DNA from: Acetobacteraceae bacterium
Lineage (GTDB): Bacteria; Pseudomonadota; Alphaproteobacteria; Acetobacterales; Acetobacteraceae
Direction: 5' to 3'
Assembly: GCA_965276715.1 (NCBI GenBank)
Contig: OZ255622.1
Location: 2,534,642-2,598,641 of the forward strand
Length of the DNA stretch: 64,000 nucleotides
Shown: piece by piece, positions 515 through 58,257 of the stretch
How the letters are laid out: each line of letters opens with the position of its first letter
How positions within the stretch are numbered: position 1 is the stretch's first letter
The notes under the pieces: generated by a model
The model's database searches: none
What the model saw: the letters and a program-made list of their open reading frames with translations, nothing else
Told to the model about the DNA's origin: nothing
Program-made: the position numbers and the translations under genes

Positions 515-2029
515 TCAGTTGAACGCGATCGGCTTGTCGGGAAGCGGGACGGCGTTGAAGGCGGCGCCGCAGGTTTGCGACTCGGCAAACTGGAGGTCGA
601 AGACGACCTTGTTGTTTGCCCCGATTCCTTGCAGTTCCGCGGTGGTTTCGTTGTTCGCGGTGGTGAAGTCGATCAGGTAACTGTTCCGGGATGCCTGGTA
701 GAAGCTGCCGCAGAACGGGGCGTAGATCGCGGGCCTCGGGGTGTAGTTGATGATTTCGGTCGCCGTCATCGCCTTGGTGTCGATCTTGTAGCTGCGCCCG
801 GCGCTGAACCCGCGATTGATGCCGGCGGGGACCTGGAAGGTGCTCGCCGTCCCGTCATCGAACAGCATGAGATTGCCCGACAGATCGATCGAGACGGCGT
901 GCTGGCCGATCGGCGGCAGCGTGTCGGGTCCGAGCTGGAGGGTGTATTTCGCGAGCGAGGGAAAGGAGTGCCATTTCTTGGTGGTGTCGCCGAGGATCCA
1001 GTGGATTTTCCTCACGCCAGCCGCCGGCGTGTCGTAGTCGACGGCGATGACGAAGTTCTCCCGGCTCGAGAAGATCTCGGTGTTGTCGGCGGGATTGTAG
1101 GTCGACGCGTTCATATGGAACCAGTCGACGCCGACCGGCTCGACGAAGTCGTTCGGATTGTCGCCGTCGGCGGCCATCGCCGAGCCGATGATGTGCCCAA
1201 GGTCCCAGGCTTGCAGGATCGCGCCGTTCGCCGGATTGAACTCCACCGCGACGCCTTCCGTCTCGGCGGTGGTGTTGACGTCGACGACGATGCCGTTACG
1301 CCCGGGATCCATGTTGTGGTGGTCGGTCGTGGTCACGCCGTTGGCGGCGTAGTCGACGAGTTTGGTCGTCTGTCCGGTCAGGTCGATGCGGTTGATGCCG
1401 GTCTTGCCGTCGCTCGCATAGATGGCGTTGTTGTAGAAGATGGAGGCGATCGAACCGGCGTCGGCGGTGCCGACCCAGCGCAGGTGGCCGTCGGTGTCGA
1501 CGATCGCGGGAGAGTTCGCACTGCAGGAATCCTTCATCAGGAAGTAGTCGAACCCGATCTCGGCGACCTTGGTCCTGTTCTGCCGCAGGGTCGGCGCATT
1601 GATCGGGGCGCACGGATCCATGTAGGCGGCGGTGGTCACCGGCTTGAAGGCGAAGGCGTTCGAACCGTCGGTGAACGAGTAGAGGAGTGCGACGATGTTG
1701 TTCGAGCCGGCATAGAGGCCCCAGACCGGGACCGTGACGTTGCTGCCCGCGACGTCGCCGTGCGACGACAGGTAGGCGGCCGAGTAGCTGGCGGCGAGCG
1801 GCGCGACGAAGGAATTCGGCTTGGACAGGATGGCGTAGGTGACGGAGGCGAGCGGCGCGCCGCTCAGCGTCGCGGTGATCTCGGAGATGAAGGGTGTGGG
1901 TCCGGGAGTGGCGGCGCCGACATCGGCGTGCCCGGCGGCGAGGGCCGCGGATGGCAAGAGCAACGCGCATCCGGATGCGACCCGACGAATGAACCCGGTC
2001 TGTCCCGCGAAGCGTCGGCCGAACACCAT
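515..2029 (-). CDS. secreted arylsulfotransferase (ASST)-family beta-propeller protein
   Basis: 504-aa ORF with an N-terminal signal peptide. The DHHNMDP and DWFHMNASTYN motifs resemble the ASST family as I recall it. No search was run. Confidence 0.5.
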   Translation of the reverse strand: MVFGRRFAGQTGFIRRVASGCALLLPSAALAAGHADVGAATPGPTPFISEITATLSGAPLASVTYAILSKPNSFVAPLAASYSAAYLSSHGDVAGSNVTVPVWGLYAGSNNIVALLYSFTDGSNAFAFKPVTTAAYMDPCAPINAPTLRQNRTKVAEIGFDYFLMKDSCSANSPAIVDTDGHLRWVGTADAGSIASIFYNNAIYASDGKTGINRIDLTGQTTKLVDYAANGVTTTDHHNMDPGRNGIVVDVNTTAETEGVAVEFNPANGAILQAWDLGHIIGSAMAADGDNPNDFVEPVGVDWFHMNASTYNPADNTEIFSSRENFVIAVDYDTPAAGVRKIHWILGDTTKKWHSFPSLAKYTLQLGPDTLPPIGQHAVSIDLSGNLMLFDDGTASTFQVPAGINRGFSAGRSYKIDTKAMTATEIINYTPRPAIYAPFCGSFYQASRNSYLIDFTTANNETTAELQGIGANNKVVFDLQFAESQTCGAAFNAVPLPDKPIAFN

Positions 2030-2077
2030 CTGACGGTCCCCCTTTTGATCATAATGACGATATCGTTGCTCGACCGT

Positions 2078-2383
2078 CTACCGGGAAAAGACCTGCCGAT
2101 CCTTGTTGTCGCGCATCAGCATCGAGAAGCTCGGGATGCGGTCGAAGCCGAGGCCGCGCGGTGTTCCCGTCTCCGGATCGGCCTCGATGCGGCCGTAGGT
2201 CTCGCCCGACACCTTCTCCCATTTGCCGGACGGCTTCTTGACCTCGATGTTGACGACGGTCGCCTTGAACACCATCCGGACGATCGCCTCCTTCGGCGCG
2301 GACGGCTTGGTCAGGCACGGGGCGCCCGCGACCATGGTCCAGCCGTTGGCGAGCGCCCACGCGGTGAGTTCGTTCTTATCCAT
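2078..2383 (-). CDS. hypothetical protein (101 aa)
   Basis: Start moved to the internal MDKNELT Met of the 128-aa ORF. Composition looks protein-like and no family was recognised. Confidence 0.4.
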   Translation of the reverse strand: MDKNELTAWALANGWTMVAGAPCLTKPSAPKEAIVRMVFKATVVNIEVKKPSGKWEKVSGETYGRIEADPETGTPRGLGFDRIPSFSMLMRDNKDRQVFSR

Positions 2384-2868
2384 GATGATGTCGTAACGGC
2401 GGCCGGCCGTTCGGTCCAGGGGCGAGCCGCCGCGACGATCAAGAGGCGGGACGCCAACGCGCACCGGGCGGGGACGCGCGCTCGGACCGGCAGCCGGCGT
2501 TGTCGCCGGACGCGATCATGCGGGCGGCAAGTCGCGTTCCGACCGGCCAGTCGACGAAGATGATGTCGTTGGCGGCACGCGCGCGGATCGTGGCGATATG
2601 GACGCAGGCCGCGCAGAGCGGGGCCGATGATGCGGAGGAGCCGGTGGCAACCCTTGCGCAGGAGCATCGTTCTATGATCGTCATGACATACGGTTGCGCC
2701 TATGATGACGGCAACGCAACAAGACTCCGATCACAAAGACGTTAGAAGATGTCAGCGCCGGGTCGCCGCATCACAAGGGATTCTTTTCGTTACAATGGGA
2801 AACTCTGACAAAATGCGTTAGACGTGGGATGGTTCCGCATGCGCAAGATGATGTCGAAACGAGACAGC

Positions 2869-3165
2869 ATGGTTCATCGGATCGTGGACGCGCGTTGGGT
2901 GGCGCCGCCCGGCGTCGAGGCCCACCGTCATCTCGCCCTGATCAGACATGCCGAGCGGCTGTTCTCGTTCTCGGATCTGCTGGCCTGCACGCCGCCGGAC
3001 GAGATCGATCCCGGCCTGGCCGCCGGCCACGTCAAGCCGCAGGAATGGTGGGACGATCTGGCCTCGCGCCGGCCGAAGGTCGCCGACCGCATTGCCGCGA
3101 GATGTCATCCACAGGATTTCGGCGTGCTCGATCTGTATGCCATGGACGTTAGCGGATCGGCCTAG
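2869..3165 (+). CDS. conserved hypothetical 98-aa protein, paralogue of 14058-14354
   Basis: From MVHRIVDARWVAPPG it aligns end to end (about 50% identity, same length) with the 14058-14354 product. Shared blocks are LALI.H..RLFS.SDL, PQEWWD, DF.VLDLYAM and a GSA C-terminus. Confidence 0.6.
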   Translation: MVHRIVDARWVAPPGVEAHRHLALIRHAERLFSFSDLLACTPPDEIDPGLAAGHVKPQEWWDDLASRRPKVADRIAARCHPQDFGVLDLYAMDVSGSA

Positions 3166-3234
3166 TGGTCCGATCCTGACGCTCGCTATCCGAGCGTCAG
3201 GTGTATCGGCCCACCAGAACAGAGGGTTGTGGGC

Positions 3235-3266
3235 AAATCTGACGGTTCCTTCCGTCAGATTTTGTC
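3235..3266 (+). terminator. intrinsic terminator-like hairpin
   Basis: 11-bp stem aaatctgacgg/ccgtcagattt with a 6-nt loop, running into TTTT. A second 11-bp hairpin lies at 3175-3201. Confidence 0.45.
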
Positions 3267-3370
3267 CACTAGGGCCGCGGCTGACGCCATCGAGCGGCGT
3301 GTGATACAGCAAGGCACGACTTCGCGCGGGTGATATAGCAGGGCGCGCCTCAGGCGCGGACGCCTGAAGG

Positions 3371-4294
3371 ATGAGACGCATGAAAGCCAACTCCGTCCTC
3401 GATACGATCGGCGGCACGCCACATATCCGCTTTGCGCGGATGTTTCCGGCAGCCGGCGTGTGGATCAAGTCGGAACGCGCCAATCCCGGCGGCTCGATCA
3501 AGGACCGGATCGCGCTGGCGATGATCGAGGCGGCCGAGGAGAGCGGCGCGCTCCAGCCGGGCGGGACGATCATCGAGCCGACGTCGGGCAACACCGGCAT
3601 CGGGCTTGCGATGGTGGCCGCCGTGAAGGGCTACAGGCTCGTCCTGGTGATGCCGGAGTCGATGTCGGTGGAACGGCGCCGGCTGATGCAGGCCTATGGC
3701 GCCACGTTCGACCTGACGCCGAAGGAGCGCGGCATGAAGGGAGCGATCGAACGCGCGGCCGAGCTCGCCTCGCAGACCCCGGGCTCCTGGATCCCGCAGC
3801 AGTTCGAGAACCCGGCCAACATCACAATCCATGCCCGGACGACCGCGCGCGAGATCGCCGACGATTTTCCGGACGGCGTCGACGCGATGATCACCGGGGT
3901 GGGCACCGGCGGACACATCACCGGGTGCGCCGAGATGCTCAAGCAGCGTTGGCCCGCGATGCGGGCGTTTGCGGTGGAGCCCGCGCAGTCGCCGGTGATT
4001 TCGGGCGGCAAGCCGTCGCCGCATCCGATCCAGGGCATCGGCGCCGGGTTCGTGCCGGCCAACCTGCACGTGGCGGTTCTCGACGGGGTGATCCAGGTCG
4101 AGGCCGAGGAGGCGCGCGAGTTCGCCCGTCGATCGGCCCGCGAAGAGGGCGTGCTGGTCGGGATCTCGTCGGGGGCGACGCTGGCGGCGATCGCCAAGAA
4201 GCTGCCTGAGCTCGAGGCCGGCGCCACGGTGTTGGGTTTCAATTACGACACCGGCGAGCGCTATCTGTCGGTGCCGGATTTCCTGCCGGCGTGA
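3371..4294 (+). CDS. cysK: cysteine synthase A (O-acetylserine sulfhydrylase)
   Basis: NPGGSIKDR and [13 protein letters not shown]-enzyme motifs, with full-length similarity to CysK. Confidence 0.9.
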
Positions 4295-4307: not shown

Positions 4308-4358
4308 TGGTGCCGACAGTCGGAATCTAACCGAGGACCTACTGATTAAGAATTCGCT
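4308..4358 (-). repeat. degenerate copy of the 3' half of tRNA-Thr (att-like direct repeat)
   Basis: 43 of 51 nt match 5720-5770 in the same orientation. This includes a perfect 20-mer aaccgaggacctactgatta and an 11-mer tggtgccgaca. Confidence 0.7.
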
Positions 4359-4632
4359 GGATCGGCATATCTGGCGGTTTCGATGCGTTTCGGGGCAACT
4401 CCGGACATCTTCCGAATTCGCTGTTTGCAATCGAAAACGAGAAAACCGCAGACGCGATCACCTTCTCGAAGACGAATTGGAGAGAGGTTGGCGATCACGG
4501 CAGACCAAGCCGCACCCGAGCCTCGGCCCGGCCCCAGTTACCGCCCCCCGCTTCTGAACGCTCGATTTCAATCATGTGGCGCGACACGACGACGTTATGC
4601 AACGATCCGACGGTCAGAGACGTGAGGTTCGT

Positions 4633-5261
4633 ATGCTGCTGCAAACGGAGTGGGCCGCGAGGATCGGCCTTAACCCTAGCCTCATGACCGGTGATCCGGA
4701 TCAAGCCCGCGCAATCGGCGCCGTAGTCTCTTGGCGTTGGCTTCCCCCCGGCCTGCGGAATGCCTGGTGCATGCAGTTCATGTCCTCCGGCCGTGGCTAC
4801 CCCTCTCAGCCTCGACCGCGTTTTGGCGAGAGCTTGAGAATAAGCGCGCCGGGTTGTTCGGCAGCGGCACGTCTACCGCCGTAGATCCTCTGATCGCGTA
4901 CCGACACCCGTGGTGTCTCTCGAACAGGGAATTCGCGGAGGCACAGGCCCGCATCAACGATGGCAGTGCGCCAAACACGCTCGATGACGACAGGATGAGG
5001 ATCAGCACGCTCGCAAAATGGATCGCGCCGCTGTTCTCGATCGCCGGGCCTGCGGCTGCCGCAACCGGCGTTCTCGCTGCTCCAACGGCAGTTGCCGCCG
5101 GGCTCTTCGGGATGGCTGCAGGCGCCGATGCACTCGGCGAGATGCTCGGCGACTGGCTCGAATCTGAAGCGTTCAAGCGACAGATACCGAGCCTGCGGGG
5201 AATGTATGAGCGTGAAAGCAACTACAGAAGCGTCGAACTCCGCCAGCCGCTGGCTGCCTGA
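4633..5261 (+). pseudogene. frameshifted paralogue of the 57500-58132 HPWC-motif protein
   Basis: The N-terminal part (MLLQTEWAARIGLNPSL...) is in frame 1 and the C-terminal part (..AFWRELENKRAG..HPWCLSN..) is in frame 0. The frames switch at the C4 run 4800-4803, and one extra C would restore GYPLSASTAFW. Confidence 0.65.
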
Positions 5262-5496
5262 TCCGGCACGCTGGCTTCTCTTGGGTGGGATGTTCCTCGG
5301 CGGTGGCGTCGGAGGATTGGTTGAGCACATTTCACACGCGGGCGGCGGTGGTCTATCGATCGCGGGCGGTCTAGTCACGGGGGCGACGGTGTTTTATCCG
5401 GCGGCGACATCCGCTAAGTGGGTGGCGGGCGTAGCGGGCGTTGTCATGATCGCCATAGGCTGCGGATACTTGTTCTTGAGCGTTCACTCCATCTGA
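5206..5496 (+). CDS. small Gly-rich multi-TM membrane protein (partner of the preceding gene)
   Basis: 96 aa with about 3 hydrophobic segments. Its position and topology match 57268-57528. It overlaps the 3' end of the upstream gene. Confidence 0.5.
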   Translation: MSVKATTEASNSASRWLPDPARWLLLGGMFLGGGVGGLVEHISHAGGGGLSIAGGLVTGATVFYPAATSAKWVAGVAGVVMIAIGCGYLFLSVHSI

Positions 5497-5719
5497 AAGC
5501 CTGCGAATCATCGACCGCTCGCGCTGACGGCAAAGATGCCAGGGTGCGCACTCCGGTCAACCCCGGTGGGTCCTTGCAATGCTCGGCGCAGACGCCTGCG
5601 CGTGGCTTCGGTCCCGGCCTGCTGCCGCCGGTTGGTGTCCGACGGGTATCCAAGCGGCGCCCCGAATGCTGACACCCGGACACCAAGGGCGCTCAACCCA
5701 TTGGCCTGACTGAAGGAAT

Positions 5720-5794
<75 letters not shown>

Positions 5795-5983: not shown

Positions 5984-7288
5984 GTGGTCGAGGGGCTGCG
6001 GGAATGTCCCGACTGCGGCCTGTTCCAGGTGGTTCCGGACAGCGCGCCGGGCGAGACGATCCGCTGCGCGCGCTGCGCGAGCTGGCTCCGCCGGCACCGC
6101 GCGGACCCCACGAGCCTGGCGCTGTCGCTCAACGTGACCTCGCTGGTGCTGTATCTGGTCGTGCTGTCCCTGCCGCTGATGACGCTCGATCTGCTGGGCC
6201 GGCTGCACACGGTCAACGTGCTCACCGGCCCCATGGCGCTCTGGGCCGACCAGGGCGGCCTGGCGCTGGTGGGATCGCTGGTGCTGTTCGCGACCGTGCT
6301 GATGCCCGGCGTGGTGATCGGGCTCAATCTCGTGGTGCTGGCGGGCGCGCGTCGCCCGGTCAGTCCGCGCCATCTGCCGCGGCTGATGCGCATGCGGAAA
6401 TACCTGCGACCCTGGTCCATGGTCGAGGTCTACATGCTCGGCGTGTTCGTGGCCTACACCAAGCTCGTCGATCTGGCCCATGTCGATCTGGGGCCGTCCA
6501 TCTTCGCGCTGGCCGCGATCATGGTGCTGATGATCGGCGCCGACGGCGCCTTCGACACCGAAGCGATCTGGGACAAGATCCAGGCCGAGCGGCGGACGGG
6601 TCCGGGGTCGGCGACGTGCGCGGCGGACGAGGGCCTGGCCGACACGCGGCGGCTGATCGCATGCCACAGTTGCGAACTCGTGGTGCAGGCGGCGCGCGGT
6701 CCTGACCCGCATTCCTGTCCGCGCTGCGCCGCGGCGCTGCACCGGCGCGAGCCCAACAGCCTGCAGCGGACGATGGCCTTCCTGCTGGCGTCCGCGATCC
6801 TGTATGTGCCGGCGAACCTGCTGCCGGTGCTGACACTGACCCGGTTCGGCCGCGGCGAGCCGAGCACCATCCTCGCCGGCGTGGAGGAGCTCTACAAGAG
6901 CAACATGCTGCCGCTGGCGCTCCTGGTGTTCGTGGCCAGCATCTGCGTGCCGTGCCTGAAGGTGGTCGGGCTCACGGTGATGGTGGTGATGACGCGGCTT
7001 CGGGCCAGCGCCGGCCTGATCGACCGGACGCGCCTGTTCCGGGTGATCGACTTCATCGGACGCTGGTCGATGATCGATGTGTTCATGATCTCGATCCTGG
7101 TCGCGATCGTGCATTTCGGCTTCCTCGCCAACGTCACGGCCAATCCGGGGATCGTGGCGTTCGCTCTCGTGGTGGTGCTGACGATCTTCGCCGCCGAGGC
7201 GTTCGATCCGAGGCTGATGTGGGACGCGGCCGCGGGACGACAGCGTGAACGCCCGCGGATGGTCGCCGACGCGCGGGCCGCGGAGTGA
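5984..7288 (+). CDS. pqiA: paraquat-inducible protein A (two PqiA repeats)
   Basis: Two Cys-pair modules (CPDCG...CARC and CHSCE...CPRC), each followed by TM segments. GTG start. Confidence 0.85.
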   Translation: MVEGLRECPDCGLFQVVPDSAPGETIRCARCASWLRRHRADPTSLALSLNVTSLVLYLVVLSLPLMTLDLLGRLHTVNVLTGPMALWADQGGLALVGSLVLFATVLMPGVVIGLNLVVLAGARRPVSPRHLPRLMRMRKYLRPWSMVEVYMLGVFVAYTKLVDLAHVDLGPSIFALAAIMVLMIGADGAFDTEAIWDKIQAERRTGPGSATCAADEGLADTRRLIACHSCELVVQAARGPDPHSCPRCAAALHRREPNSLQRTMAFLLASAILYVPANLLPVLTLTRFGRGEPSTILAGVEELYKSNMLPLALLVFVASICVPCLKVVGLTVMVVMTRLRASAGLIDRTRLFRVIDFIGRWSMIDVFMISILVAIVHFGFLANVTANPGIVAFALVVVLTIFAAEAFDPRLMWDAAAGRQRERPRMVADARAAE

Positions 7289-8979
7289 GCGGCCGCTCGG
7301 ACGACGGCCAGGACGAAGCCCCGAGGCCGGTCGCTTCCGTCAGGCGCGCGCGGTTTTCCGCGATCTGGACCATCCCGATCATCGCGCTGATCATCGCGAT
7401 CTTCCTGGGCTACCGAACGATCACGTCGAGCGGCGCCCTGATCACGATCAGCTTCGAATCGGCCGAAGGCCTGACCGCTGGGCAGACGCAGGTCAAGCAC
7501 AAGAACGTGGCCCTCGGCACCGTCGAGGCGATCAGGCTGACGCATGACCTGCGCGAGGTGCTGGTCAACGTGCGGATGACGCGCGAGGCGAACCGGATCC
7601 TCAACGACAAGACCCGCTTCTGGGTGGTCCGGCCGCGGCTGTCGGGCTCGAACATCAGCGGGCTCGAGACGCTGGTGTCGGGCGCCTACATCGCCGTCGA
7701 CCCGGCGCCCGAGGGCAACCCGACGAAGGAGTTCGACGGGCTGGAATCGCCGCCCGGCGTCCGGTCCGACGAGCCGGGACGCACCTACACGCTGATGACG
7801 GGCAACGTGAACTCGATCGGCGAGGGCTCGCCGGTGTTCTTCCGCGGCATCACGGTGGGCGAGGTGCTGGGCTACAAGATCCCGCCGTCGGGGCGCGGGC
7901 CGATCCCGGTGCAGGTGTTCGTCCGCGAGCCGTACGATCATTTCGTCCGGGTCGACACGCGATTCTGGAACGATTCGGGTGTCGAGGTTAATCTCGGCGG
8001 CGGCGGCCTAAAGGTGCAGGTCGAGTCGCTGCAGGCGGTGCTGTCGGGCGGCGTCGGGTACGGGATCAGCGAGGAGCGTCGCGGCCTGGATGTGCCGGAG
8101 GCGCCGGACGAGGCGGTCTACAAGCTCTACGACACGCGGGCCGACGCCGACTCGGCTGGCTATCACCGGCGCATCCCGTTCGTGACCTACCTGCAGAACT
8201 CGGTCAAGGGCCTGGAGGTCGGCAGCGAGGTCGACCTCTATGGCATCCAGATCGGCAACGTGACGGACGTGAAGCTCCAGCTCGACCGGTCGGGAACGGC
8301 GCGGGTGCGGGTGGCGATGGAGGTGCAGCCCGAGCGCGTGTTCGCCGGCGACGAGCTGCACGGCGAGACGGCCTCCGGCTTCACGCGCAAGCTGGTCGCC
8401 AACGGCATGCGGGCGCAGTTGAGCTCGGCGAGCTTCATCACCGGCGCCTCGCTGATCAGCTTCGAGTTCGTGCCCAACGCCAAGCCCGCCGACATCAGCA
8501 TCGAGGGCGACGCGATCGTCCTGCCGAGCGAGAAGGGCGGCCTGTCGGGCATCACCGACAGCCTGAGCGATGTCGCGGCCAAGCTCGACAGCCTGCCGCT
8601 GACCGAGATCGCCTCGCATCTCGACGATGTGCTGGCGGGCGCGGGCCGGACGGTCAACGACCCCGACCTCAGGCAGGCGATCCACCAGCTCTCGGGCACG
8701 CTCGCCAGCATCCATGGCCTGGCCGACCACGCCAATCATGGCCTGACGCCGTTGCTGCGCGAGCTACCGGCGATGTCGGACCAGTTGCAGCAGACGTTGC
8801 GTCACGCCAACACGCTGCTCGCGAGCTACAACGGCGATTCGGATTTCGGCAGCAACCTGAACGCGCTGATGGGCCAGTTGTCGGACATGGCGCGCTCGCT
8901 GCGCCTGCTGTCGGATTACCTGCAGCGGCATCCGAACTCGCTGATCTTCGGGCGAAGCGCGCCGGGCCGGCACGAGTGA
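7285..8979 (+). CDS. pqiB: intermembrane transport protein PqiB (multi-MCE/MlaD)
   Basis: N-terminal TM followed by repeated MCE domains. The GTGA start/stop overlaps pqiA. Confidence 0.85.
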   Translation: MSGRSDDGQDEAPRPVASVRRARFSAIWTIPIIALIIAIFLGYRTITSSGALITISFESAEGLTAGQTQVKHKNVALGTVEAIRLTHDLREVLVNVRMTREANRILNDKTRFWVVRPRLSGSNISGLETLVSGAYIAVDPAPEGNPTKEFDGLESPPGVRSDEPGRTYTLMTGNVNSIGEGSPVFFRGITVGEVLGYKIPPSGRGPIPVQVFVREPYDHFVRVDTRFWNDSGVEVNLGGGGLKVQVESLQAVLSGGVGYGISEERRGLDVPEAPDEAVYKLYDTRADADSAGYHRRIPFVTYLQNSVKGLEVGSEVDLYGIQIGNVTDVKLQLDRSGTARVRVAMEVQPERVFAGDELHGETASGFTRKLVANGMRAQLSSASFITGASLISFEFVPNAKPADISIEGDAIVLPSEKGGLSGITDSLSDVAAKLDSLPLTEIASHLDDVLAGAGRTVNDPDLRQAIHQLSGTLASIHGLADHANHGLTPLLRELPAMSDQLQQTLRHANTLLASYNGDSDFGSNLNALMGQLSDMARSLRLLSDYLQRHPNSLIFGRSAPGRHE

Positions 8980-9608
8980 GCGAGGGGAGGGGACGATTGG
9001 GCGACGTGACACGGCGCGGCGTGCTGGGTCTGCCGCTGCTGGCACTCCCGGCGCTCGCGGGCTGCGGCAGCGGCGATCCGACCTATTTCACCCTCGAGAC
9101 GTCGCCCGGCGCGGTCCGGCGCGGCGGCCCGTCGCCGATCGAGGTGCGGACGCCGAGCGTCGCCGCGTTCCTCGACCGCGACTACATCGTGCAGAGCACG
9201 CAGGGCTACCGGCTCAAGCTCGCCGGCAACGACGCATGGGCGGAAGCGATCGCCGACATGATCGCGCGCGTGCTGACGTCCGACCTGTCGCAGAGGCTGC
9301 CGGACGCAACGGTGTTCCGGGCCGGCACCGCGATCGGCGGAACGCCGTCGGCGATCGTGGCGCTGGTGGTGGACCGGTTCGACGAGGACCAGTCCGGCAC
9401 CGCGGTCGTCCACGCGACGCTCGCCGTCCATCCGGTGGCCGGGGAGGCGGCGAGCGTGCCGGTCGCGTTGTCCGAGGCGCCGGCCGGTTCCGGCACCGCC
9501 TCGCTGGTCGCGGCACTCAGCCATCTGCTGGGGCTGGTGGCGGACCGGGCGGCCGACCGCCTGCTCGCCTTGCCGCCCTCGGGTGCGATGCCGCTCGCCT
9601 CCGGCTGA
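8976..9608 (+). CDS. pqiC: PqiC-like ABC-transport auxiliary lipoprotein (DUF330)
   Basis: Lipobox LAGCGS. The GTGA overlaps the pqiB stop. It occupies the third position of a pqi operon. Confidence 0.75.
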   Translation: MSEGRGRLGDVTRRGVLGLPLLALPALAGCGSGDPTYFTLETSPGAVRRGGPSPIEVRTPSVAAFLDRDYIVQSTQGYRLKLAGNDAWAEAIADMIARVLTSDLSQRLPDATVFRAGTAIGGTPSAIVALVVDRFDEDQSGTAVVHATLAVHPVAGEAASVPVALSEAPAGSGTASLVAALSHLLGLVADRAADRLLALPPSGAMPLASG

Positions 9609-41404: not shown

Positions 41405-41995
41405 ATGACGGACGAACACGAGCACGACGGATTGCAGGCGGACATCGTCGACGAGGCCGACGCCGTTCGGCCCGGCCCGGAGCAGACGATGCAGGCGGCG
41501 GCGGACCGGATCGGCGAGCTGGAGGCGTCGCTCGAGGAGATGCGCGAGCGCTGGGTGCGCGCGGAGGCGGAGGCGCAGAACATCAGGTCGCGTGCGCGGC
41601 GCGACGTCGACGATGCGCGCCAGTACGCGGTGCAGAAATTCGCGCGCGACGTCGTCGAGGCCGCCGAGAATCTCAGGCGCGGCCTGGCCAGCCTGCCGGA
41701 GGCGTCCAGCGACGACGCGATGCTGGGCAAGCTGCGGGAGGGTTTCGAGGGCGTCGAGCGGAGTTTCATCGGCATCCTCGAGCGCAACGGGATCATCGCC
41801 ACCGATCCGACGGGCGAGAAGTTCGACGCCAACCTGCATCAGGCGATGGCCGAGCAGCCGTCCGAACAGTATCCGCCCGGGACGGTGGTCGCGGCCTGGA
41901 CCAAGGCCTGGACCCTGAACGGCCGGCTTCTCAAGCCGGCGATGGTGGTGGTCTCGAAGGGCGGCGAGCCGTCCGGCCTCGATACGTCCGCGTAA
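41405..41995 (+). CDS. grpE: nucleotide exchange factor GrpE
   Basis: RAEAEAQNIRSRARRD..YAVQKFARD and GEKFDANLHQAM. Confidence 0.9.
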   Translation: MTDEHEHDGLQADIVDEADAVRPGPEQTMQAAADRIGELEASLEEMRERWVRAEAEAQNIRSRARRDVDDARQYAVQKFARDVVEAAENLRRGLASLPEASSDDAMLGKLREGFEGVERSFIGILERNGIIATDPTGEKFDANLHQAMAEQPSEQYPPGTVVAAWTKAWTLNGRLLKPAMVVVSKGGEPSGLDTSA

Positions 41996-42061
41996 GGCAC
42001 CCGCTCGCGGCAGCGGCCGGGATGTTCGGGTTCGATGCATAATTCGTAGGCACATTTGGGC

Positions 42062-42090
42062 CTTGCCGGGCCGTGCGGCCTTCCATACAT
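42062..42090 (+). promoter_or_regulatory. candidate RpoH (sigma-32) heat-shock promoter of dnaKJ
   Basis: CTTG-N17-CCATACAT, located 120 nt upstream of the dnaK ATG. It resembles the alphaproteobacterial CTTG-N17-CC.AT.T consensus. Confidence 0.35.
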
Positions 42091-42209
42091 GCGAGCCTGT
42101 CATCCGGTCTCGTGAACGGTTGTCCAGAACCAGCCGGTCTGTTCCATGTCCATAGGGTCGCTTCCGGTGCTTCGGGCCGGTCGCCACCGCTGAAAGGAGT
42201 TTTTGCGCG

Positions 42210-44114
<1,905 letters not shown>

Positions 44115-51297: not shown

Positions 51298-54200
51298 ATG
51301 ATCCAGGGCGGTCTGTTCACGCGTGACTTCCTCCTGGAGGGCGTCACGACCGAACCCGCTTGGCGGGCGCTGACCGACCTTCACGTGGCTGCCGCACGCG
51401 CTCGGCTCATTGCGTTGTCGACGCCGTTCGCGAGCCAGCGTGAGCCCAACGAGGCCGAGACCGAGGCGCAACTGATCTTTCCCGCACTCGAGGATGTGCT
51501 GGATTGGCCTGACTGGCTGCCGCAACAGAACCAGTCCGCCTCCGGCCGGTCGGACGTGCCCGATGCGCTGCTGTTCGCCGATGCGGAGACACTGTCTCGC
51601 GCGCGGGCCGAGCCGGCATGGCAGCGATTTCAGCGAGGCTTGTGCCTCGTCGAGTCGAAGCGCTGGAACCGGCCGCTCGACCGTCCGGCGGACGCGCGCG
51701 GCAAACGGGGGGCCGAAGACGACTTTCCCTCGGCGCAAATCCTCCATTACCTGCGGCGCGCCGACGCGATCACCAGGGGCACGCTGCGCTGGGGCATCCT
51801 GACCAACGGCAGGCTCTGGCGGCTTTATTGGCAAGGCGCGGTTTCGGTCTCGGAGGACTTTCTCGAGATCGATCTCGGCAAGATGCTCGGGCTTCCCGGA
51901 TGCGAACCGGACCTGCTCGATGCGCGCGGTGTCGCGCCCGACCACGCGATGCGCCTGTTCCTGCTGCTGTTCGGCCGCGCGGCGTTCCTTCCCTACGAGC
52001 AGGGCCGCACCTTTCACGCCATCGCGCTCGAGCAGGGCAAGCGGTGGGAAGAGAAGGTCGCGCGCGATCTCTCGCGGGTGGTGTTCGACCAGGTGTTCCC
52101 CGTCCTGGCGCGCGCGCTGGGACGCCATGATCGGGCGCGTCCGACCGAACCGTCGGCGGCTTGGCTGGAGCTGGTCCGGACGAGCACGCTGATCCTGCTC
52201 TATCGGCTTCTGTTCGTCCTTTACGCCGAGGACCGGGACCTGCTGCCCGACGAAAGCGGGCCGTACGCGGACTACTCGCTGACGCGCATCCGGCGCGAGG
52301 TCGCCCAAGCGCGGGCCGCCGGCAAGGCCGCGTCGCCACGCGCCGCGATCTACTGGGCGCGACTGCGCGGCATCTTTGCCGCTGTGGCGCACGGCGACGA
52401 CGGGCTCGGCATTCCGCCCTACAATGGAGGCCTGTTCGAGCCCGACGCGGCGCCGTTGCTCGACCGCGTCGAGCTGCCGGACGCGGTGGTGGCCGAGATC
52501 GTGTTCGCGCTGTCCCACATCGAGAGCGAGCGCGGTCCCAAATACGTCAACTACCGCGATCTCTCGGTCCAGCAACTCGGCTCGGTATATGAGCGCATCC
52601 TGGAGTTCGGCCTGCGGCTCGGCGAGGACGGCGAGATCGCGGTGGATCGTGATGACGACGAGCGCCACGACACCGGCAGCTACTACACGCCGGAGGCACT
52701 GGTCTCGTTGATTATCGAACGCGTAGTGGGGCCGGCGGTGGCGGGGCGTTCAAAGGCGTTCGAAGCTGCGGCCGCCCGGCTGGCCACTGATCGGCGGCCG
52801 GTTGCGACCCGGTTGGCGGAGCTTGCCAAGTATGATCCCGCGTCGAAGCTGCTCGAATTGAGGGTCTGCGATCCGGCGATGGGTTCGGGGCACTTCCTGG
52901 TCAGTCTTGTCGACTGGCTTGCCACCCGCGTGTTGGCGGCGATTGCCGAGGCATCGGCGCAGGTGGGTTGGGGGGTTTATGGCTCGCCGCTACTGGGGCG
53001 CGTGGCCAGCGTGCGCGAGCGCATCCTGTCGGAAGCGAAAATCCACGGCTGGCCGGTGCTGCCCGAGCAGCTCGACGACCGGCATGTCGTCCGGCGGATG
53101 ATCCTCAAGCGCGTGGTGCATGGGGTCGACAAGAACCCGATGGCGGTCGAGCTCGCCAAGGTGTCGCTGTGGCTGCACACGTTCACGGTCGGCGCGCCGC
53201 TGTCGTTCCTCGACCACCATCTGCGCTGCGGCGACAGCATCGTGGGCGCATGGGTCGCGTCTACCCTGGATGCGGTGGCGCAAGGCGGCGGGCTGCTGGC
53301 CCGCGGCGAGATCGCGCGGGTCGAGCACATCGCCGGCGAGATGACCAAGATCGAGGAGATCACCGATAACGATGTCGCCGAGGTGAAGGCGTCCATGCAC
53401 GCGTTCGGCGCAATCGCGGACACGACGCGCGAGCTCGATGCGTTCTTTTCGCTGATGACAGCCCGGCCGGCGCTCGGCATCGACCTCGACCCGAAACTCA
53501 AGCCGCCCCGGGCGAGCCCGCGCCAGTTGCGCGCCGCCGGCGCCGATGCGGGCAGGATCGCGACCGCCGCCAAACAGCAGCTTGCCTATGATCGGGCGGC
53601 CGCCTTCAAGGCGGTGCTCGGCGGACAATACGGCGACCCGCTGACGCTCGCTTCGGGCGCGCTGGTCATCGACACGCCGGATGAGGATTCCGACCAGTCG
53701 CTGCTCGTCGAGGTCGGCGAGGCGATGGACCGGCGCCGTCGCGCGGCGTCGCTCCTGTCGGATGCGCGGTCGCTGACCGCGCGCGAGCGGTTCCTGCACT
53801 GGCAGATCGCTTTCCCCAATATCTGGCGGCATCTGACTTACGCCGCGCCGGACGGCGGCTTCGACGCGGTGATCGGCAACCCGCCGTATGTGCGTCAGGA
53901 GCGGTTGGCCGGCGGTCAAGCCGGCGCTGCAAGCGGGATACGGCACGTTCGCGGGCACCGCCGATCTATATGTCTATTTCTTCGAGCAGGGTCTGCGCCT
54001 GGTCAAGCCGGGCGGCCGGGTCGCCTACGTCGTGACGAACAAGTGGCTGAAAGCGGGCTATGCCGAAGGTCTGCGGGCGATGCTGGTCGACCCCGCGCGC
54101 GCCGAGACGGAGGCGGTGATCGATTTCGGGCATGCGCGCGCGTTCTTTCCGGACGCGGACGTGTTCCCGAACGTCGTGGTCGTTCGTCGGCCGGGCGAGG

Positions 54201-55417
54201 AGGCCGCGCCCGATACCCTTACGGTCGCGGTTCCGCCGCGCGACACGCTGCCTGACGATCGCCTGGGTGCGGCGGTGGCGGCGGCGAGCTTCTCGATCGC
54301 GCGCTCGTCGTTCAGCCGCGACGGCTGGACGCTGGAGCCCAAGCCGGTGATGGATCTGCTCGCCAAGATCAAGCGCGCGGGCGTGCCGCTGGTGGAATAC
54401 GCCGGGGTAAAGCCGTACCGAGGAGTGCTGACTGGCTACAACGAGGCGTTTCTGATCGACACATCCACCCGCGATCGTTTGGTCGCCGACGACCCCGCCA
54501 GCGCGGAGATCGTCAGGCCTTATCTTCGCGGTCAGGACATTCAGCGATGGGGTGCCGATTGGGCAGGGCTCTGGATGATTTTCACTCGGCGAGGAGTAGA
54601 TATCGAGCGCTTTCCGTCGGTGCTCGGGCACCTTGAAAGGTTCAGAGTTGGGCTTGAGCCAAAATCGGATTCTTGGAGACCGAAGAACTCGAAGGACGAA
54701 TGGCCCGGACGCAAGTCGGGAAACTATGCCTGGTATGAGATTCAGGATTCGGTCGAGTACTGGAAGGAGTTTCAGAAACCGAAGATCATTTATCAAGAGA
54801 TCCAGTTTTATCCCAGCTATGCCTTTGACACTTCGGGCAGGTTTGGAAACAACAAGACCTTCATCCTGCCAACGGATGATCTTTCATTACTCGCAACACT
54901 CAACTCGCCACTGATGTGGTGGCGCAATTGGCGCGCTCTTCCTCATCTAAAGGACGAGGCGCTTTCGCCGATGGGTTATTTGGTCGAAAACTTCCCGATC
55001 GCTGTGTCGAAGGACAGCGCCGCGCATGTCGAACGGCTGATCACGTCGACCACGTCGATCCGAGCCGCGGCGTTGGCCATTCACGATTGGCTTCGCATGG
55101 AGTTCGGCCTTGAACGGCCCGGGCGTGCGCTGGAAGCGCCCGAGCGTCTGGACGCGGACGGGTTCGCGGCCGCGGTCCGCGCCGCGCTGCCGCGCAAGCG
55201 TCAGCTTTCCGCTGCCGAGATCGCGCGGCTCAAGCGCGAGCATCGCGAAACGATCCAGCCGGCCCGCGACGCCAGCGCGGAAGTGCTGCGGCTGGAGCGC
55301 CGGATTTCCGATCTCGTGAACGCGGCCTACGGGCTGACGCCCGAGGACGTCGCCTTGATGTGGTCGACCGCGCCGCCGCGTACGCCGCTCGCGCCGTCGG
55401 CTCCCCATGAGCCGTGA
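51298..55417 (+). pseudogene. type IIG restriction-modification enzyme (PD-ExK nuclease, gamma-class N6-adenine MTase and TaqI_C-like TRD), disrupted by a 1-nt frameshift
   Basis: The N-terminal part has PDALLF...VESKRW and LTNGRLWRLY. Motif I is RVCDPAMGSGHFLV and motif IV is VIGNPPYVRQE. The frame changes near 53908-53917 and the sequence continues as KPALQAGYGTFAGTADLYVYFFEQGLRLVKPGGRVAYVVTNKWL in the 53888-55417 ORF. Confidence 0.8.
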
Positions 55418-55470: not shown

Positions 55471-56040
55471 TTACTTGCGGTCGTCGCGATCACAGCTTGG
55501 CCTCCCGTCCGATCGGCAGGTTTCGGCGGCATCCTGGATCAGGGCATGAACCTCGCTGGTGCGCGGCAACGCCGCCAGAACCGCCGGCGTGCAGTGCCCG
55601 CCGGCATCGTCGATGCGGTTAGCCAGTTCGATCGAGGTGTGGCCGATGAAGTATTCGGAGTAATGCCCGGCCAGCTTGGTCAGGATCGCGCAGTAGGCGC
55701 GGTGGCGCGGCCTGTGCGCCAGCAGGTCGCCCTGGAGCGCCTCGTCTGCCGCACGGGCCGGATCGGCGGTCTGAGGCACATGCGCCATGGTGCCAGGGAC
55801 GTCGCGGCGAAAGATGATCATGAAAGCGCGGGCGACGTCGCGCACTGCGGCGCACTTCTCGGTGCCGCACCCGCCGGCAGTGCGGTTCGCGTCACCCACC
55901 TCATCCCAGGTCGCGGGGCCGTTCAGAATACCAGCGTAAGGATCGGGGGCCGCAGCGGCGGGTGCCATGACCGCGAGGGCCGCGGCCAGAACGGATGCGC
56001 TCCTAGTGTCCCGATTGGCAATTGCTGACCAGGAAGTCAT
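55471..56040 (-). CDS. secreted Cys-rich hypothetical protein; 5' end rebuilt by the IS630 insertion
   Basis: Signal peptide ..RSASVLAAALAVMAPAAAA. The first 12 codons (56040-56006) are IS-derived. The original ATG and 3 codons lie at 57194-57185, across the IS. Confidence 0.55.
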   Translation of the reverse strand: MTSWSAIANRDTRSASVLAAALAVMAPAAAAPDPYAGILNGPATWDEVGDANRTAGGCGTEKCAAVRDVARAFMIIFRRDVPGTMAHVPQTADPARAADEALQGDLLAHRPRHRAYCAILTKLAGHYSEYFIGHTSIELANRIDDAGGHCTPAVLAALPRTSEVHALIQDAAETCRSDGRPSCDRDDRK

Positions 56041-57184
56041 GCAGCCGTGGTTTCGGTAAGCGCGACGCGTGCTCGTTTGATTTTTGCGAGGATTTCGGCG
56101 CCCGTGGCTTTCCAGACGTATGGCTTTGGATCGGCATTGCGCACGGCGAGATAGGCTTTGATGTCACGGACCAGTTCGTTGACCGACGTGAAGCTGCCGA
56201 CACGGATCACGTCGCCGGTTAGGTCGGCGAAGAAGCGCTCGACCAGATTGAGCCACGAGGACGAGGTCGGCGTGAAGTGCATGTGGAAACGAGGGTGTCT
56301 GCCCAGCCACGCCCGCACATTGGGATGTTTATGGGTGGCGTAGTTGTCCGCGATCAGATGCAGATCGACGTCGGACGGCGTCTCGCGATCAATCTGCTTG
56401 AGGAAACGCAGCCATTCGACATGCGTGTGGCTCGCCTCGGTGCGGCTGATCAGCTTTCCGGTCAACTGGCTGAGGGCTGCGAACAGTGTGATCGTGCCAT
56501 GCCTGACGTAGTCGTGCGTCATCGTGGGCGGGCGCTTCGGCGCCAGCGGGAGGCCCAGTTGCGTGCGTTCGAGCGCCTGGCATTGGCTTTTCTCGTCGCA
56601 GCACAGCACCAGCGCCTTCGCGGGCGGATTGAGATACAGCCCGATGACGTCCCAGAACTTCTCCTCGAATTTCGGATCGTTCGACAGCTTGAAGGTCCTC
56701 AGACGATGTGGCTTGAGGTCGTTCCTCGACCACAGGCGCTGGACCGAACTCGCGGAGACCCCGGCGTGACGGCTCATCGACCGCAGGCTCCAGCGGCGTC
56801 TACCCTTCGGCGGACGGGTCGCTTCGGTCAGCACGCGTGCCACTTTCACCTCCGGGATCGAAGCCTTGCGGCCACGACCCGGTCGATCATCCAGCCCCGC
56901 AAGACCGAACCTCTCGAACCGCCTCGACCACGTCGAGACGCGCTTGGGCGTCGTATTCAGCCGCTCGGCGACGGCTTCAACCCCGACGCCGTCGAGCCGA
57001 AGCAGGATGATGTCGGCACGCTCGCGCTCCCGCACGTCGACGATGGCCGACCGCGACCGGCGTCGAAGCTCCGTGACAGCGCCAGGTTCAGCACGCAGTC
57101 GCTTGATCGGTCGTCCCATCAAGGCATTTCTCCCGAAACTCTCACGATCAGGAGATATTAGTCGGCAATTGCGGAGCAGGACAC
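56006..57184 (-). mobile_element. IS630-family insertion sequence (1179 bp) with TA target duplication at a CTAG site
   Basis: Terminal inverted repeats are gtgtcccgattggcaattgc (56006-) and gtgtcctgctccgcaattgc (reverse complement of -57184). TA lies at 56004-56005 and at 57185-57186. The element carries a single transposase ORF. Confidence 0.85.
56037..57119 (-). CDS. IS630-family (DDE_3) transposase
   Basis: HTH region, LVLCCDEKSQCQALERTQ, HLIADNYATHKH and FTPTSSSWLNLVERFF. Start at MGRPIKR, inside the IS boundary. Confidence 0.85.
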   Translation of the reverse strand: MGRPIKRLRAEPGAVTELRRRSRSAIVDVRERERADIILLRLDGVGVEAVAERLNTTPKRVSTWSRRFERFGLAGLDDRPGRGRKASIPEVKVARVLTEATRPPKGRRRWSLRSMSRHAGVSASSVQRLWSRNDLKPHRLRTFKLSNDPKFEEKFWDVIGLYLNPPAKALVLCCDEKSQCQALERTQLGLPLAPKRPPTMTHDYVRHGTITLFAALSQLTGKLISRTEASHTHVEWLRFLKQIDRETPSDVDLHLIADNYATHKHPNVRAWLGRHPRFHMHFTPTSSSWLNLVERFFADLTGDVIRVGSFTSVNELVRDIKAYLAVRNADPKPYVWKATGAEILAKIKRARVALTETTAA

Positions 57185-57267
57185 TAGTGGACATGGCCAA
57201 CCGGCACTTGCCTGACTTGCAAAAAGAGAAAGATGGAGAAATCCAGCCGCGACCGTTCTGAAAAAGT

Positions 57268-57528
57268 TCAGTTGATTTTCTCGAAAGCCCAGATCGCTAC
57301 GCCGCCCATGATGATAATGAGCACTCCGAGCGCAGCCATGCCAACCCGCACCGGCGTAGCCTGCGAGGGGATCGCGGCAGACGCCACGATCGGCCCGGAA
57401 ATCAGAAGGGTGATCCCGCATCCGAGCATAGATCTGTTCAAGATGATTATGCCGACGAAGAAAACGAGGAAGCCGCCAGCGAAGATGTATCGCGACGCTT
57501 TAGACGGCGAGGGGCTGCTGTAGCTCAC
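57268..57528 (-). CDS. small multi-TM membrane protein (partner B of the module)
   Basis: 86 aa with about 3 TM segments. Overlaps the 3' end of 57500-58132. Counterpart of 5206-5496. Confidence 0.55.
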   Translation of the reverse strand: MSYSSPSPSKASRYIFAGGFLVFFVGIIILNRSMLGCGITLLISGPIVASAAIPSQATPVRVGMAALGVLIIIMGGVAIWAFEKIN

Positions 57529-58132
57529 GTGATCTCATTCCTGCTTCGCGCTCATAGACCGATTTCAGTGCCGGAAGCTTCGCCTTGAAGGAGGCGTTCT
57601 CGAGCACGTTTTCGACTTTCTCGCTAAGGGTATCGGCACCGCTCACGGCGGCAAAGATTACCCCAGCGCCAGCAAGCGGCGGTGCAACCAACTTCGACAC
57701 CAGACCGGCAAGCGAGGTCACCCCGAGCAACGGCGCAATCCATTCGCAGAGGGTTGAAAGCCGAATGCGATCATCAGCAAGCGTGGCCGGCTTGCGACCG
57801 GTATCGATCGCCGCTTTCGCTTCAATGAATTCCGAGTTCGACAGGCACCATGGGTGCTCATACGCCCGGATCGGGTCCACGGCAGTTCCGCTGCCGGTCC
57901 CATACATCCCTGCCCTCTTGCTCTCAAGCTCACGCCAGAAAGCGGCGTCCGAGCCGAAGGGATAGCTCTTTCCGGCTTTATCGAAAATCAGCTTGCCCCA
58001 GCTGTTGCGGACGGACACTGGCAGGAAGCGCCAAGTTACGAGAACCCCGATGCCCTGAGCCCGCGTTCTGTCGGCACCCACAAGGCTCGGATTGATGCCG
58101 ACCCGCTCCGCCCATTCCGTCGTCAAAAGCAT
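57500..58132 (-). CDS. hypothetical HPWC-motif protein with central Gly/Ala-rich hydrophobic segment (partner A of the module)
   Basis: 210 aa starting at MLLTTEW, with GAGGGG 8 nt upstream. About 55% identical to the restored 4633-5261 product. No family recognised. Confidence 0.6.
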   Translation of the reverse strand: MLLTTEWAERVGINPSLVGADRTRAQGIGVLVTWRFLPVSVRNSWGKLIFDKAGKSYPFGSDAAFWRELESKRAGMYGTGSGTAVDPIRAYEHPWCLSNSEFIEAKAAIDTGRKPATLADDRIRLSTLCEWIAPLLGVTSLAGLVSKLVAPPLAGAGVIFAAVSGADTLSEKVENVLENASFKAKLPALKSVYEREAGMRSRELQQPLAV

Positions 58133-58257
58133 ATGCCGTCCCCCTCGCATAAACGTCTGTATCATCGCTCGGGCCGATTTCAGATCGCCTCACGCGAGAG
58201 GACGAGGGACTTTATGTCGGTGTCGGACTCCAATGAGCATTGGGTTACGGCGGGTTT

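Follow-up and report, generated by a model that had tools for sequence, protein, structure and literature searches.

Two copies of a two-gene module in the window

We analyzed a 64,000-nucleotide stretch of contig OZ255622.1 from an Acetobacteraceae bacterium (the window) and focused on a pair of overlapping genes, A and B, that occurs in it twice (Table 1). Copy 1 (A1 and B1) is intact, as the initial annotation had proposed: both open reading frames (ORFs) are uninterrupted and overlap by 29 nt at the 3' end of A1. The longest mechanical ORF of A1 extends to 58165; because the homologues start exactly at the Met of 58132 (MLLTTEW...) and GAGGGGGA lies 6 nt upstream of it, we take the 210-aa reading to be correct. 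The GTG start of B1 at 57528 has AGGAA 9 nt upstream. The four sequence blocks pointed out beforehand, TEWAERVGINPSL, AFWRELE.KRAG, GTAVDP and HPWCLSN, are all present in A1, and three of them occur, slightly altered, in the second copy. Promoter and terminator scans gave nothing exceeding the shuffled expectation.

The recurrence of the pair at 4633-5496 was also predicted, with about 55% identity for A. A second A+B pair is indeed found there; the identity is 51% over 210 aa (E 1e-75), calculated between A1 and a frameshift-corrected A2, since the A2 frame is broken by a single 1-nt deletion at ~4802-4806. With one base added, the sequence reads GYPLSASTAFW, exactly that of the intact orthologue at L016, a locus in an Acetobacteraceae metagenome-assembled genome (MAG); a sequencing error may also have produced the break. 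A2 and B2 overlap by 56 nt at the 3' end of A2. B1 and B2 are alike in length and in their pattern of about three hydrophobic helices, and are only 30% identical in a local alignment of 69 aa (E 7e-4 with no correction for composition) and 21% in a global one; the similarity of the B proteins is therefore mainly architectural.

Table 1. Positions of the A+B copies and of the associated features in the window.
Feature	Position	Strand	Basis or remark
Gene A copy 1 (A1), intact, 210 aa	57500-58132	-	ORF, family alignment, AlphaFold2 model, hydropathy
Shine-Dalgarno-like GAGGGGGA	58139-58146	-	6 nt upstream of the A1 ATG; read from the sequence
Gene B copy 1 (B1), 86 aa, GTG start	57268-57528	-	ORF, hydropathy; B-like ORFs in all related loci
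Gene A copy 2 (A2), frame broken once	4633-5261	+	Pseudogene or sequencing error
Gene B copy 2 (B2), 96 aa from ATG 5206, open frame, three hydrophobic helices	5206-5496	+	
Imperfect repeat (89%) of the last 46 nt, at the 3' end, of tRNA-Thr, distal attachment (att)-like boundary	4308-4353	+	
tRNA-Thr(CGT); its 3' 46 nt (5720-5765) form the proximal att-like repeat	5720-5794	-	
IS630-family element, 1179 bp	56006-57184	-	DDE_3/HTH (helix-turn-helix) transposase ORF 56037-57200; 27-nt inverted repeats; TA duplication 56004-5 / 57185-6

Protein A joins a conserved helical domain to a hydrophobic segment

In an alignment of 28 family sequences, H93, P94, F102, P115 and R122 (A1 numbering) are invariant and W95 is nearly so; in a 20-sequence alignment, P87, E101 and D120 are also more than 90% conserved. 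HPWC, which had been taken for a conserved motif, does not hold as such: its Cys is Ser, Thr, Ala or Val in most relatives, for which reason a catalytic role for it was rejected, and the conserved core consists of H93-P94-W95 with F102, P115 and R122. The AlphaFold2 model of A1, made with the family alignment, has a mean predicted local distance difference test (pLDDT) score of 80.6 and a predicted template modelling (pTM) score of 0.74. It shows an all-helical N-terminal domain (residues 1-115, mostly above 90 pLDDT) and a confident 38-residue amphipathic helix at the C-terminus (168-205), while the hydrophobic stretch between them is poorly defined and of low confidence. By Kyte-Doolittle hydropathy, not TMHMM, this stretch (128-166) corresponds to two ~18-residue helices (128-146 and 149-166) around a Pro-containing turn. 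In five relatives, A1 not among them, the hydrophobic region aligns to profile positions ~77-143 of the pore-forming N-terminal domain of RTX toxins (PF02382) below threshold, the best match being that of P0003 (E 0.0017; 18.6 bits against a gathering score of 26.8). A universal glycine-zipper motif was rejected, as it is seen in many high-GC members and is absent in A1 and in low-GC members.

For B1, the hydropathy scan gave two long hydrophobic blocks (11-55 and 57-85), judged by eye to hold three helices of ~17-21 residues each, which agrees with the roughly three transmembrane helices assigned initially, again by Kyte-Doolittle and not by TMHMM. The same scan resolved three separate hydrophobic segments in most B homologues.

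A and B belong to a very rare family of acetic-acid-type bacteria

To our searches, A and B gave no recognizable family, as the initial annotation had stated. A1 and B1 have no significant match in Pfam-A, NCBIfam or PHROGs, and when 28 family members were scanned singly none reached a gathering score in Pfam or NCBIfam. PADLOC-DB v2 (5027 models) returned 0 families at E ≤ 1 for A and for B. Sequence and profile searches of the Protein Data Bank (PDB), including those with the N-terminal domain alone, gave chance-level matches only. The check by AlphaFold and Foldseek that had been suggested for the fold produced a confident model of A and no structural match: with two confident models (three runs), nothing below E = 1 was found in the PDB or in BFVD. 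We conclude that A represents a new protein family and that, as modeled, it probably adopts a new fold.

The family is also very small. A word-indexed search of 5.8e9 proteins with A1 returned A1 itself only. An exhaustive HMMER profile search of 1.84e9 representative proteins returned 22 sequences, 14 of them below 1e-10 and one, P0021 (538 aa, with repeats), a spurious low-complexity match, leaving ~21 relatives, and a further profile search added a few more. Ten clusters that we looked up have 1-4 members each, all from metagenome assemblies. At the DNA level we used a degenerate pattern, K..G[LIM][FY]..P..HPW.[LM]...[ED]F (~45 bits), which in the window matches only the two copies (0 of 100 shuffles) and which, among 185,579 species genomes, found a single locus, that of the L016 MAG. 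Nothing was found in metagenome contigs scanned with the pattern and a close-clade alignment, in genome contigs searched for loci related to A1, or in 72,556 PLSDB plasmids searched by tblastn with A1, P0023 and P0030. The named sources are Acetobacter thailandicus and the Acetobacteraceae MAG. Taken together, the family is real but very rare, and it belongs to acetic-acid-type bacteria.

A small membrane-protein gene accompanies A at every locus

To examine the linkage of the two genes we compared 13 distinct loci, comprising the two window copies, L016, L001, two plasmid units of L003 (plus L004-6), L007/8, L010, L011-15, L017, L018, L019 and L020. An ORF of 55-97 aa with two or three hydrophobic helices accompanies A in all 13, including L010, in which the gene caller had overlooked it. 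At twelve of them the B-like ORF lies on the same strand and begins no more than a few bases from where A ends, mostly with an ATGA overlap; at the remaining one, L003 unit 1, it is convergent with A. The expectation that A homologues are normally followed by a B-like gene is thereby borne out, and the linkage is obligate across the loci compared. The B proteins share a common architecture and almost no common sequence. Their recurrence after A is not due to chance, because it extends to loci of 30-37% GC, where open frames of ~85 codons are unlikely. No third gene is conserved across the 13 loci, and most of the chromosomal ones have housekeeping neighbors.

The 295-aa P0004 at first appeared to be a natural A-B fusion, an interpretation that we rejected as a likely homopolymer error in a 3x long-read contig: removing one G from a G-run (L020, 8620-8645) restores '...KREAP*' and the ATGA overlap. 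The AlphaFold2 model of P0004 has low confidence for the B part, and the apparent fusion weighs neither way.

Two small membrane-associated proteins in one cassette could also suggest a phage-type lysis module of the holin/antiholin kind; a lysis-type cassette had been offered for this pair at the outset. Gly/Ala-rich, weakly hydrophobic helices recall the segments of signal-arrest-release (SAR) and pinholin proteins, which we counted in its favor. No match was found in 50,697 phage genomes (tblastn with A1) or in the IMG/VR viral contigs (DNA pattern), A has no PHROG match and B only a chance-level one (E 0.29), and no endolysin or phage genes adjoin any of the 13 loci. We therefore disfavor a lysis cassette and consider it highly improbable.

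Copy 2 lies in a discrete islet with deeply divergent alleles at a tRNA-Thr site

The initial annotation described copy 2 as lying inside a tRNA att-like scar. This scar is real and bounds a discrete islet of 1.4 kb, delimited by a 46-nt direct repeat (4308-4353 / 5720-5765, 89% identical, none expected by chance) of which the distal copy begins 13 nt past the stop of a cysteine-synthase-like gene. The islet contains A2 and B2 only. No integrase gene is found inside it, and integration must therefore have been supplied in trans. Just past the tRNA-Thr, an operon for PqiA, PqiB (three MlaD domains) and a PqiC-like lipoprotein (5984-9608, +) is conserved in L016.

The L016 MAG has the same arrangement at the cysK/tRNA-Thr site, with both A and B intact, which allowed us to compare the islet with its flanks. 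The flanks are nearly identical, with a synonymous divergence (dS) of 0.035 for the cysteine-synthase-like (PALP) gene, which is 98.8% identical in DNA, and of 0.14 for pqiA. Between the repeats, the A alleles differ with a dS of ~1.5 and a nonsynonymous-to-synonymous ratio (dN/dS) of 0.10, the B alleles are only 48% identical, and the non-coding parts are rich in indels; this steep divergence begins and stops at the att-like repeats. By its dN/dS against the L016 allele, A is under purifying selection. Since divergent alleles lie between near-identical flanks, the islet was not inherited vertically with them, implying that related elements integrated independently or that alleles were exchanged at the att site. 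The element measures 1.4-1.7 kb across window 4308-5765 and L016 ~1590-3379. The left att-like repeat differs between the two, which suggests independent integrations. In the distant loci, L012 has a tRNA-Thr(TGT) and an integrase fragment ~3 kb from the cassette, and L014 has a tRNA-Thr(TGT).

The cassette shares a cargo slot of small plasmids with other modules, and A is inactivated beside an open B in three places

At 8 of 11 loci the GC content of the cassette is below that of its flanks (for example, 59 vs 69% in the window, 36 vs 53% in L001, 37 vs 59% in L007, 30 vs 45% in L003 and 52 vs 66% in L019). L003-L006 are small Acetobacteraceae MOBQ plasmids with the rep_cluster_1934 backbone, in the order mobQ, cargo, HTH protein, replication protein and mobilization protein, and with a relaxase ~70% identical to those of Gluconobacter, Komagataeibacter and Acetobacter plasmids. 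A+B occupies the slot from mobQ to the HTH gene in L003 unit 3 and L004-6. In L003 unit 2 this slot is filled by a Tlde1-domain protein (E 2.6e-34) and a membrane ORF of 92 aa, in K. medellinensis pGXY060 by a RelE/ParE toxin-antitoxin pair, and in G. sphaericus pSJF2-f by a methyltransferase, a controller and a hypothetical gene, i.e. a restriction-modification (R-M) system. Tlde1 is a type VI secretion system (T6SS) effector that targets peptidoglycan (PMC9638812). Each occupant identified in this slot is a compact selfish or conflict module. L018 represents another plasmid context, with RepA_C, ParA and Tn3.

The L003 contig (1-11390; JGI 3300007293) is a head-to-tail array of three related MOBQ plasmid units that differ in cargo, unit 1 carrying an A homologue broken by a frameshift and, convergent with it, a membrane ORF of 77 aa, unit 2 the Tlde1 module and unit 3 an intact A+B. 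The array may represent a co-integrate, or plasmid variants that co-exist may have been collapsed in the assembly.

A is inactivated and B remains open at three sites: window copy 2, L011-15 and L003 unit 1. The L011-L015 frameshift, which lies after ...HDMMQA, is identical in five independent JGI samples of a distant clade; those of window copy 2 and L003 unit 1 could be sequencing errors. In toxin/immunity loci it is typically the toxin that is lost and the protector that is kept, and A decayed beside an open B is an orphan-immunity pattern. The L011-L015 cassette is flanked on one side by a 197-aa fragment of a resistance-nodulation-division (RND) membrane-fusion protein gene and on the other by a full-length copy of that gene. 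A tandem A duplication considered for L013/L014 was rejected, the second ORF of 186 aa being unrelated.

In the plasmids, A follows mobQ directly on the same strand, an arrangement that would also suit a non-conflict accessory membrane complex, in which A, as a membrane-anchored enzyme or adaptor, would have a lipid or envelope component as its substrate and B would be its membrane partner or assembly factor, the pair possibly serving on plasmids as an accessory to mobilization or exclusion. The conservation of A, which is highest in the N-terminal domain with invariant H, P, F, P and R resembling an active or binding site, and the tight translational coupling, which suggests stoichiometric co-assembly, fit such a complex. 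Most chromosomal copies, however, have no mob or conjugation genes nearby, and the distribution of the family is patchy and extremely sparse, with ~21 relatives among 1.84e9 proteins and a single locus among 185,579 species genomes. Its GC is foreign in most loci, a divergent allele replaces the cassette between near-identical genomes, it is interchangeable with toxin-antitoxin, R-M and toxin cargo, and it is often pseudogenized. Such features are unexpected for a useful housekeeping-like function; we regard an accessory complex as quite unlikely.

A and B as a putative toxin/antidote cassette

We favor the reading that A and B form an autonomous two-gene cassette that moves horizontally and is of the toxin/antidote conflict type, with a probability of roughly 0.45. 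The circumstantial evidence in its favor comprises the shared cargo slot, the low GC in most loci, the allele replacement at the att site and the decayed A beside an open B; the RTX matches below threshold and the Ssp6/Sip6-like organization described below were also counted toward it. The candidate toxin gene and a small putative protector gene adjoin each other at 13 of 13 loci, and the divergent allele of the islet at the cysK/tRNA-Thr site looks like those of strain-variable conflict loci.

Were this reading correct, the all-helical A would be made without a signal peptide, with its conserved globular domain of ~115 aa having an enzymatic or target-binding role. This domain would be tethered to a hairpin of two ~18-residue hydrophobic, often Gly/Ala-rich helices joined by a Pro-containing turn and followed by the 38-residue amphipathic helix. 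We infer that the hairpin inserts into the cytoplasmic membrane and that A is toxic there, harming the membrane or a membrane-proximal target, most simply by depolarization. B, with about three membrane helices and translationally coupled through its overlapping start, would reside in the same membrane and protect the cell by neutralizing A. The pair could then stabilize or advantage the DNA that carries it, either by addiction, with action directed at the producer, or, if A is exported, as an effector/immunity pair directed at neighbors.

Several observations weigh against a toxin. No homology of A or B to a known toxin, immunity or defence protein was found in the libraries searched. A lacks a signal peptide and any recognizable secretion marker, no secretion system is seen in the window, and no T6SS genes are seen adjoining any of the loci. 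The most conserved part of A is the soluble N-terminal domain with its invariant polar residues, not the hydrophobic hairpin, and a simple pore-former would not need such a domain. The RTX matches may reflect composition only. Three of the 11 loci have no GC deficit, and the equivalence of cargo in the plasmid slot and the low GC elsewhere show mobility and accessory status, not toxicity.

A bolder version of the toxin/antidote reading is doubtful: that A founds a family of membrane-acting toxins with a fold of its own, that B likewise founds a family of polytopic immunity proteins, and that the two make up one of the smallest self-contained mobile conflict units known. The unit would be carried as cargo of 3.5-5-kb MOBQ plasmids and also as a 1.4-kb islet without an integrase, whose alleles an integrase acting in trans would swap for one another at a tRNA-Thr att site. 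If A is a toxin, it would add to the bacterial membrane-targeting toxins a family without a detectable relative in sequence or fold, the H-P-W/F/P/R constellation would be testable as its site of activity, and the compact A/B pair could be used for selection or plasmid stabilization in the industrially important acetic-acid bacteria. If A is not toxic, it would still be a confidently folded orphan domain, and its strict pairing with a small membrane protein would need another explanation. The copy 2 islet is in addition a clean natural case in which near-identical genomes exchange a tiny element, itself lacking an integrase, at a tRNA att site, which bears on the spread of orphan toxin/immunity genes.

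Surroundings of copy 1

Copy 1 lies at the edge of an ~8-kb variable region that follows dnaK-dnaJ, metK and selO. The region holds a type IIG R-M/DrmMI-like gene (51298-55417, +; Eco57I and TaqI_C domains), which we counted toward the conflict-cassette reading. The same neighbor could also point to an anti-phage defence or abortive-infection pair, in which the N-terminal domain of A senses infection and A and B cooperate, the hairpin and B collapsing the membrane, or in which B restrains A until triggered. An R-M system also fills the same plasmid cargo slot, and strain-variable alleles, a GC below that of the flanks in most loci and a protein that joins a soluble domain to a membrane segment, with a small membrane partner, are typical of defence islands. 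Nevertheless, none of the 5027 PADLOC models matches, even at E ≤ 1, a defence-gene neighbor is found at one chromosomal locus only, most chromosomal contexts being housekeeping, and a cooperative pair accounts less well than toxin/immunity for a decayed A next to an open B. A defence role is an unlikely alternative in our estimate.

The type IIG gene is split by a frameshift near 53.9 kb, with overlapping ORFs at 51298-54255 and 53888-55417. Together with A2, this makes two single-base frameshifts in the window, so that errors of assembly may be involved. Within the second of these ORFs, the GC content is low (50-56%) at 54.4-55.0 kb.

The initial annotation had also ascribed a mobile context to copy 1 on account of the nearby IS630 element. 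Its proximity was confirmed, the end of the element being 83 nt from the B1 stop; a role in mobilizing A and B was not, as the element interrupts the gene that follows B1 (55471-57195, -, with the element inside it) at codons 3-4. When the element is precisely excised, a 180-aa ORF with a signal peptide (MSTRSASVLAAALAVMAPAAAAP...) is restored, whose ATG lies 72 nt after the B1 stop and whose product has no Pfam match; IS630 therefore struck the next gene and marks a plastic region. The mechanical 189-aa ORF borrows its first codons from the IS630 end. Among the plasmids searched, none closely matches the IS630 DNA.

Farther away, a 640-aa ORF (41931-43853, -) lies antisense to dnaK (42210-44114; HSP70 E 2.9e-277) and matches Pfam PF10712 with E 1e-188. 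We take this 'NAD-specific glutamate dehydrogenase' match to be an antisense-of-Hsp70 artefact and presumably not a real gene.

Comparison with known systems

The toxin/antidote reading can be compared with four known systems. RTX toxins (PF02382) resemble A in the Gly/Ala-rich hydrophobic helices of five family members. They differ in that A has no RTX repeats, acylation partner or type I secretion system, all the matches are below threshold, and A1 itself has none.

The other MOBQ cargo modules (pGXY060, pSJF2-f and L003 unit 2) share with A+B the slot, homologous backbones and a compact organization of two or three genes. Their proteins are unrelated to A and B and their mechanisms are known, namely an mRNA interferase, DNA restriction and a peptidoglycan L,D-transpeptidase-like toxin.

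Pore-forming colicins are all-helical, with a hydrophobic hairpin, buried or insertable, near the C-terminus and an amphipathic helix, have a small polytopic protector and are encoded on small mobilizable plasmids. A+B is similar in its helical hairpin followed by an amphipathic helix, in its small membrane partner and in its small mobilizable plasmids, and the small membrane ORF of L003 unit 1 is convergent, as in colicin loci. The colicin immunity protein is located in the inner membrane (cited in PMC6889166). Unlike colicins, A has only 210 aa and no receptor-binding or translocation domains, there is no lysis gene, and in 12 of 13 loci B runs in the direction of A and is coupled to it in translation. 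No match to a colicin pore domain was found with Pfam Colicin or PDB sequences, or by Foldseek against the PDB at E < 0.001 with two models in which the hairpin is modeled at low confidence.

The remaining system is Ssp6/Sip6 of Serratia marcescens, a T6SS ion-selective pore-forming effector with its immunity protein (PMC6889166). The Sip6 ORF has 204 bp, encodes two transmembrane helices and overlaps the effector gene by 4 nt, and a second, silent pair is present elsewhere in the genome (PMC6889166). Ssp6 is small, has no predictable fold and acts at the membrane. A+B resembles Ssp6/Sip6 in its layout of a small candidate effector with a tiny overlapping membrane ORF and in its duplication, the second copy of A+B being decayed. 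They differ in the T6SS linkage of Ssp6, in the conserved polar N-terminal domain of A and in the approximately three helices of B. The likeness is one of layout, and the return of only ~21 Acetobacteraceae-type relatives from 1.84e9 proteins by the A profile argues against detectable homology. By analogy of layout, Ssp6/Sip6 would be the closest described counterpart of A+B.

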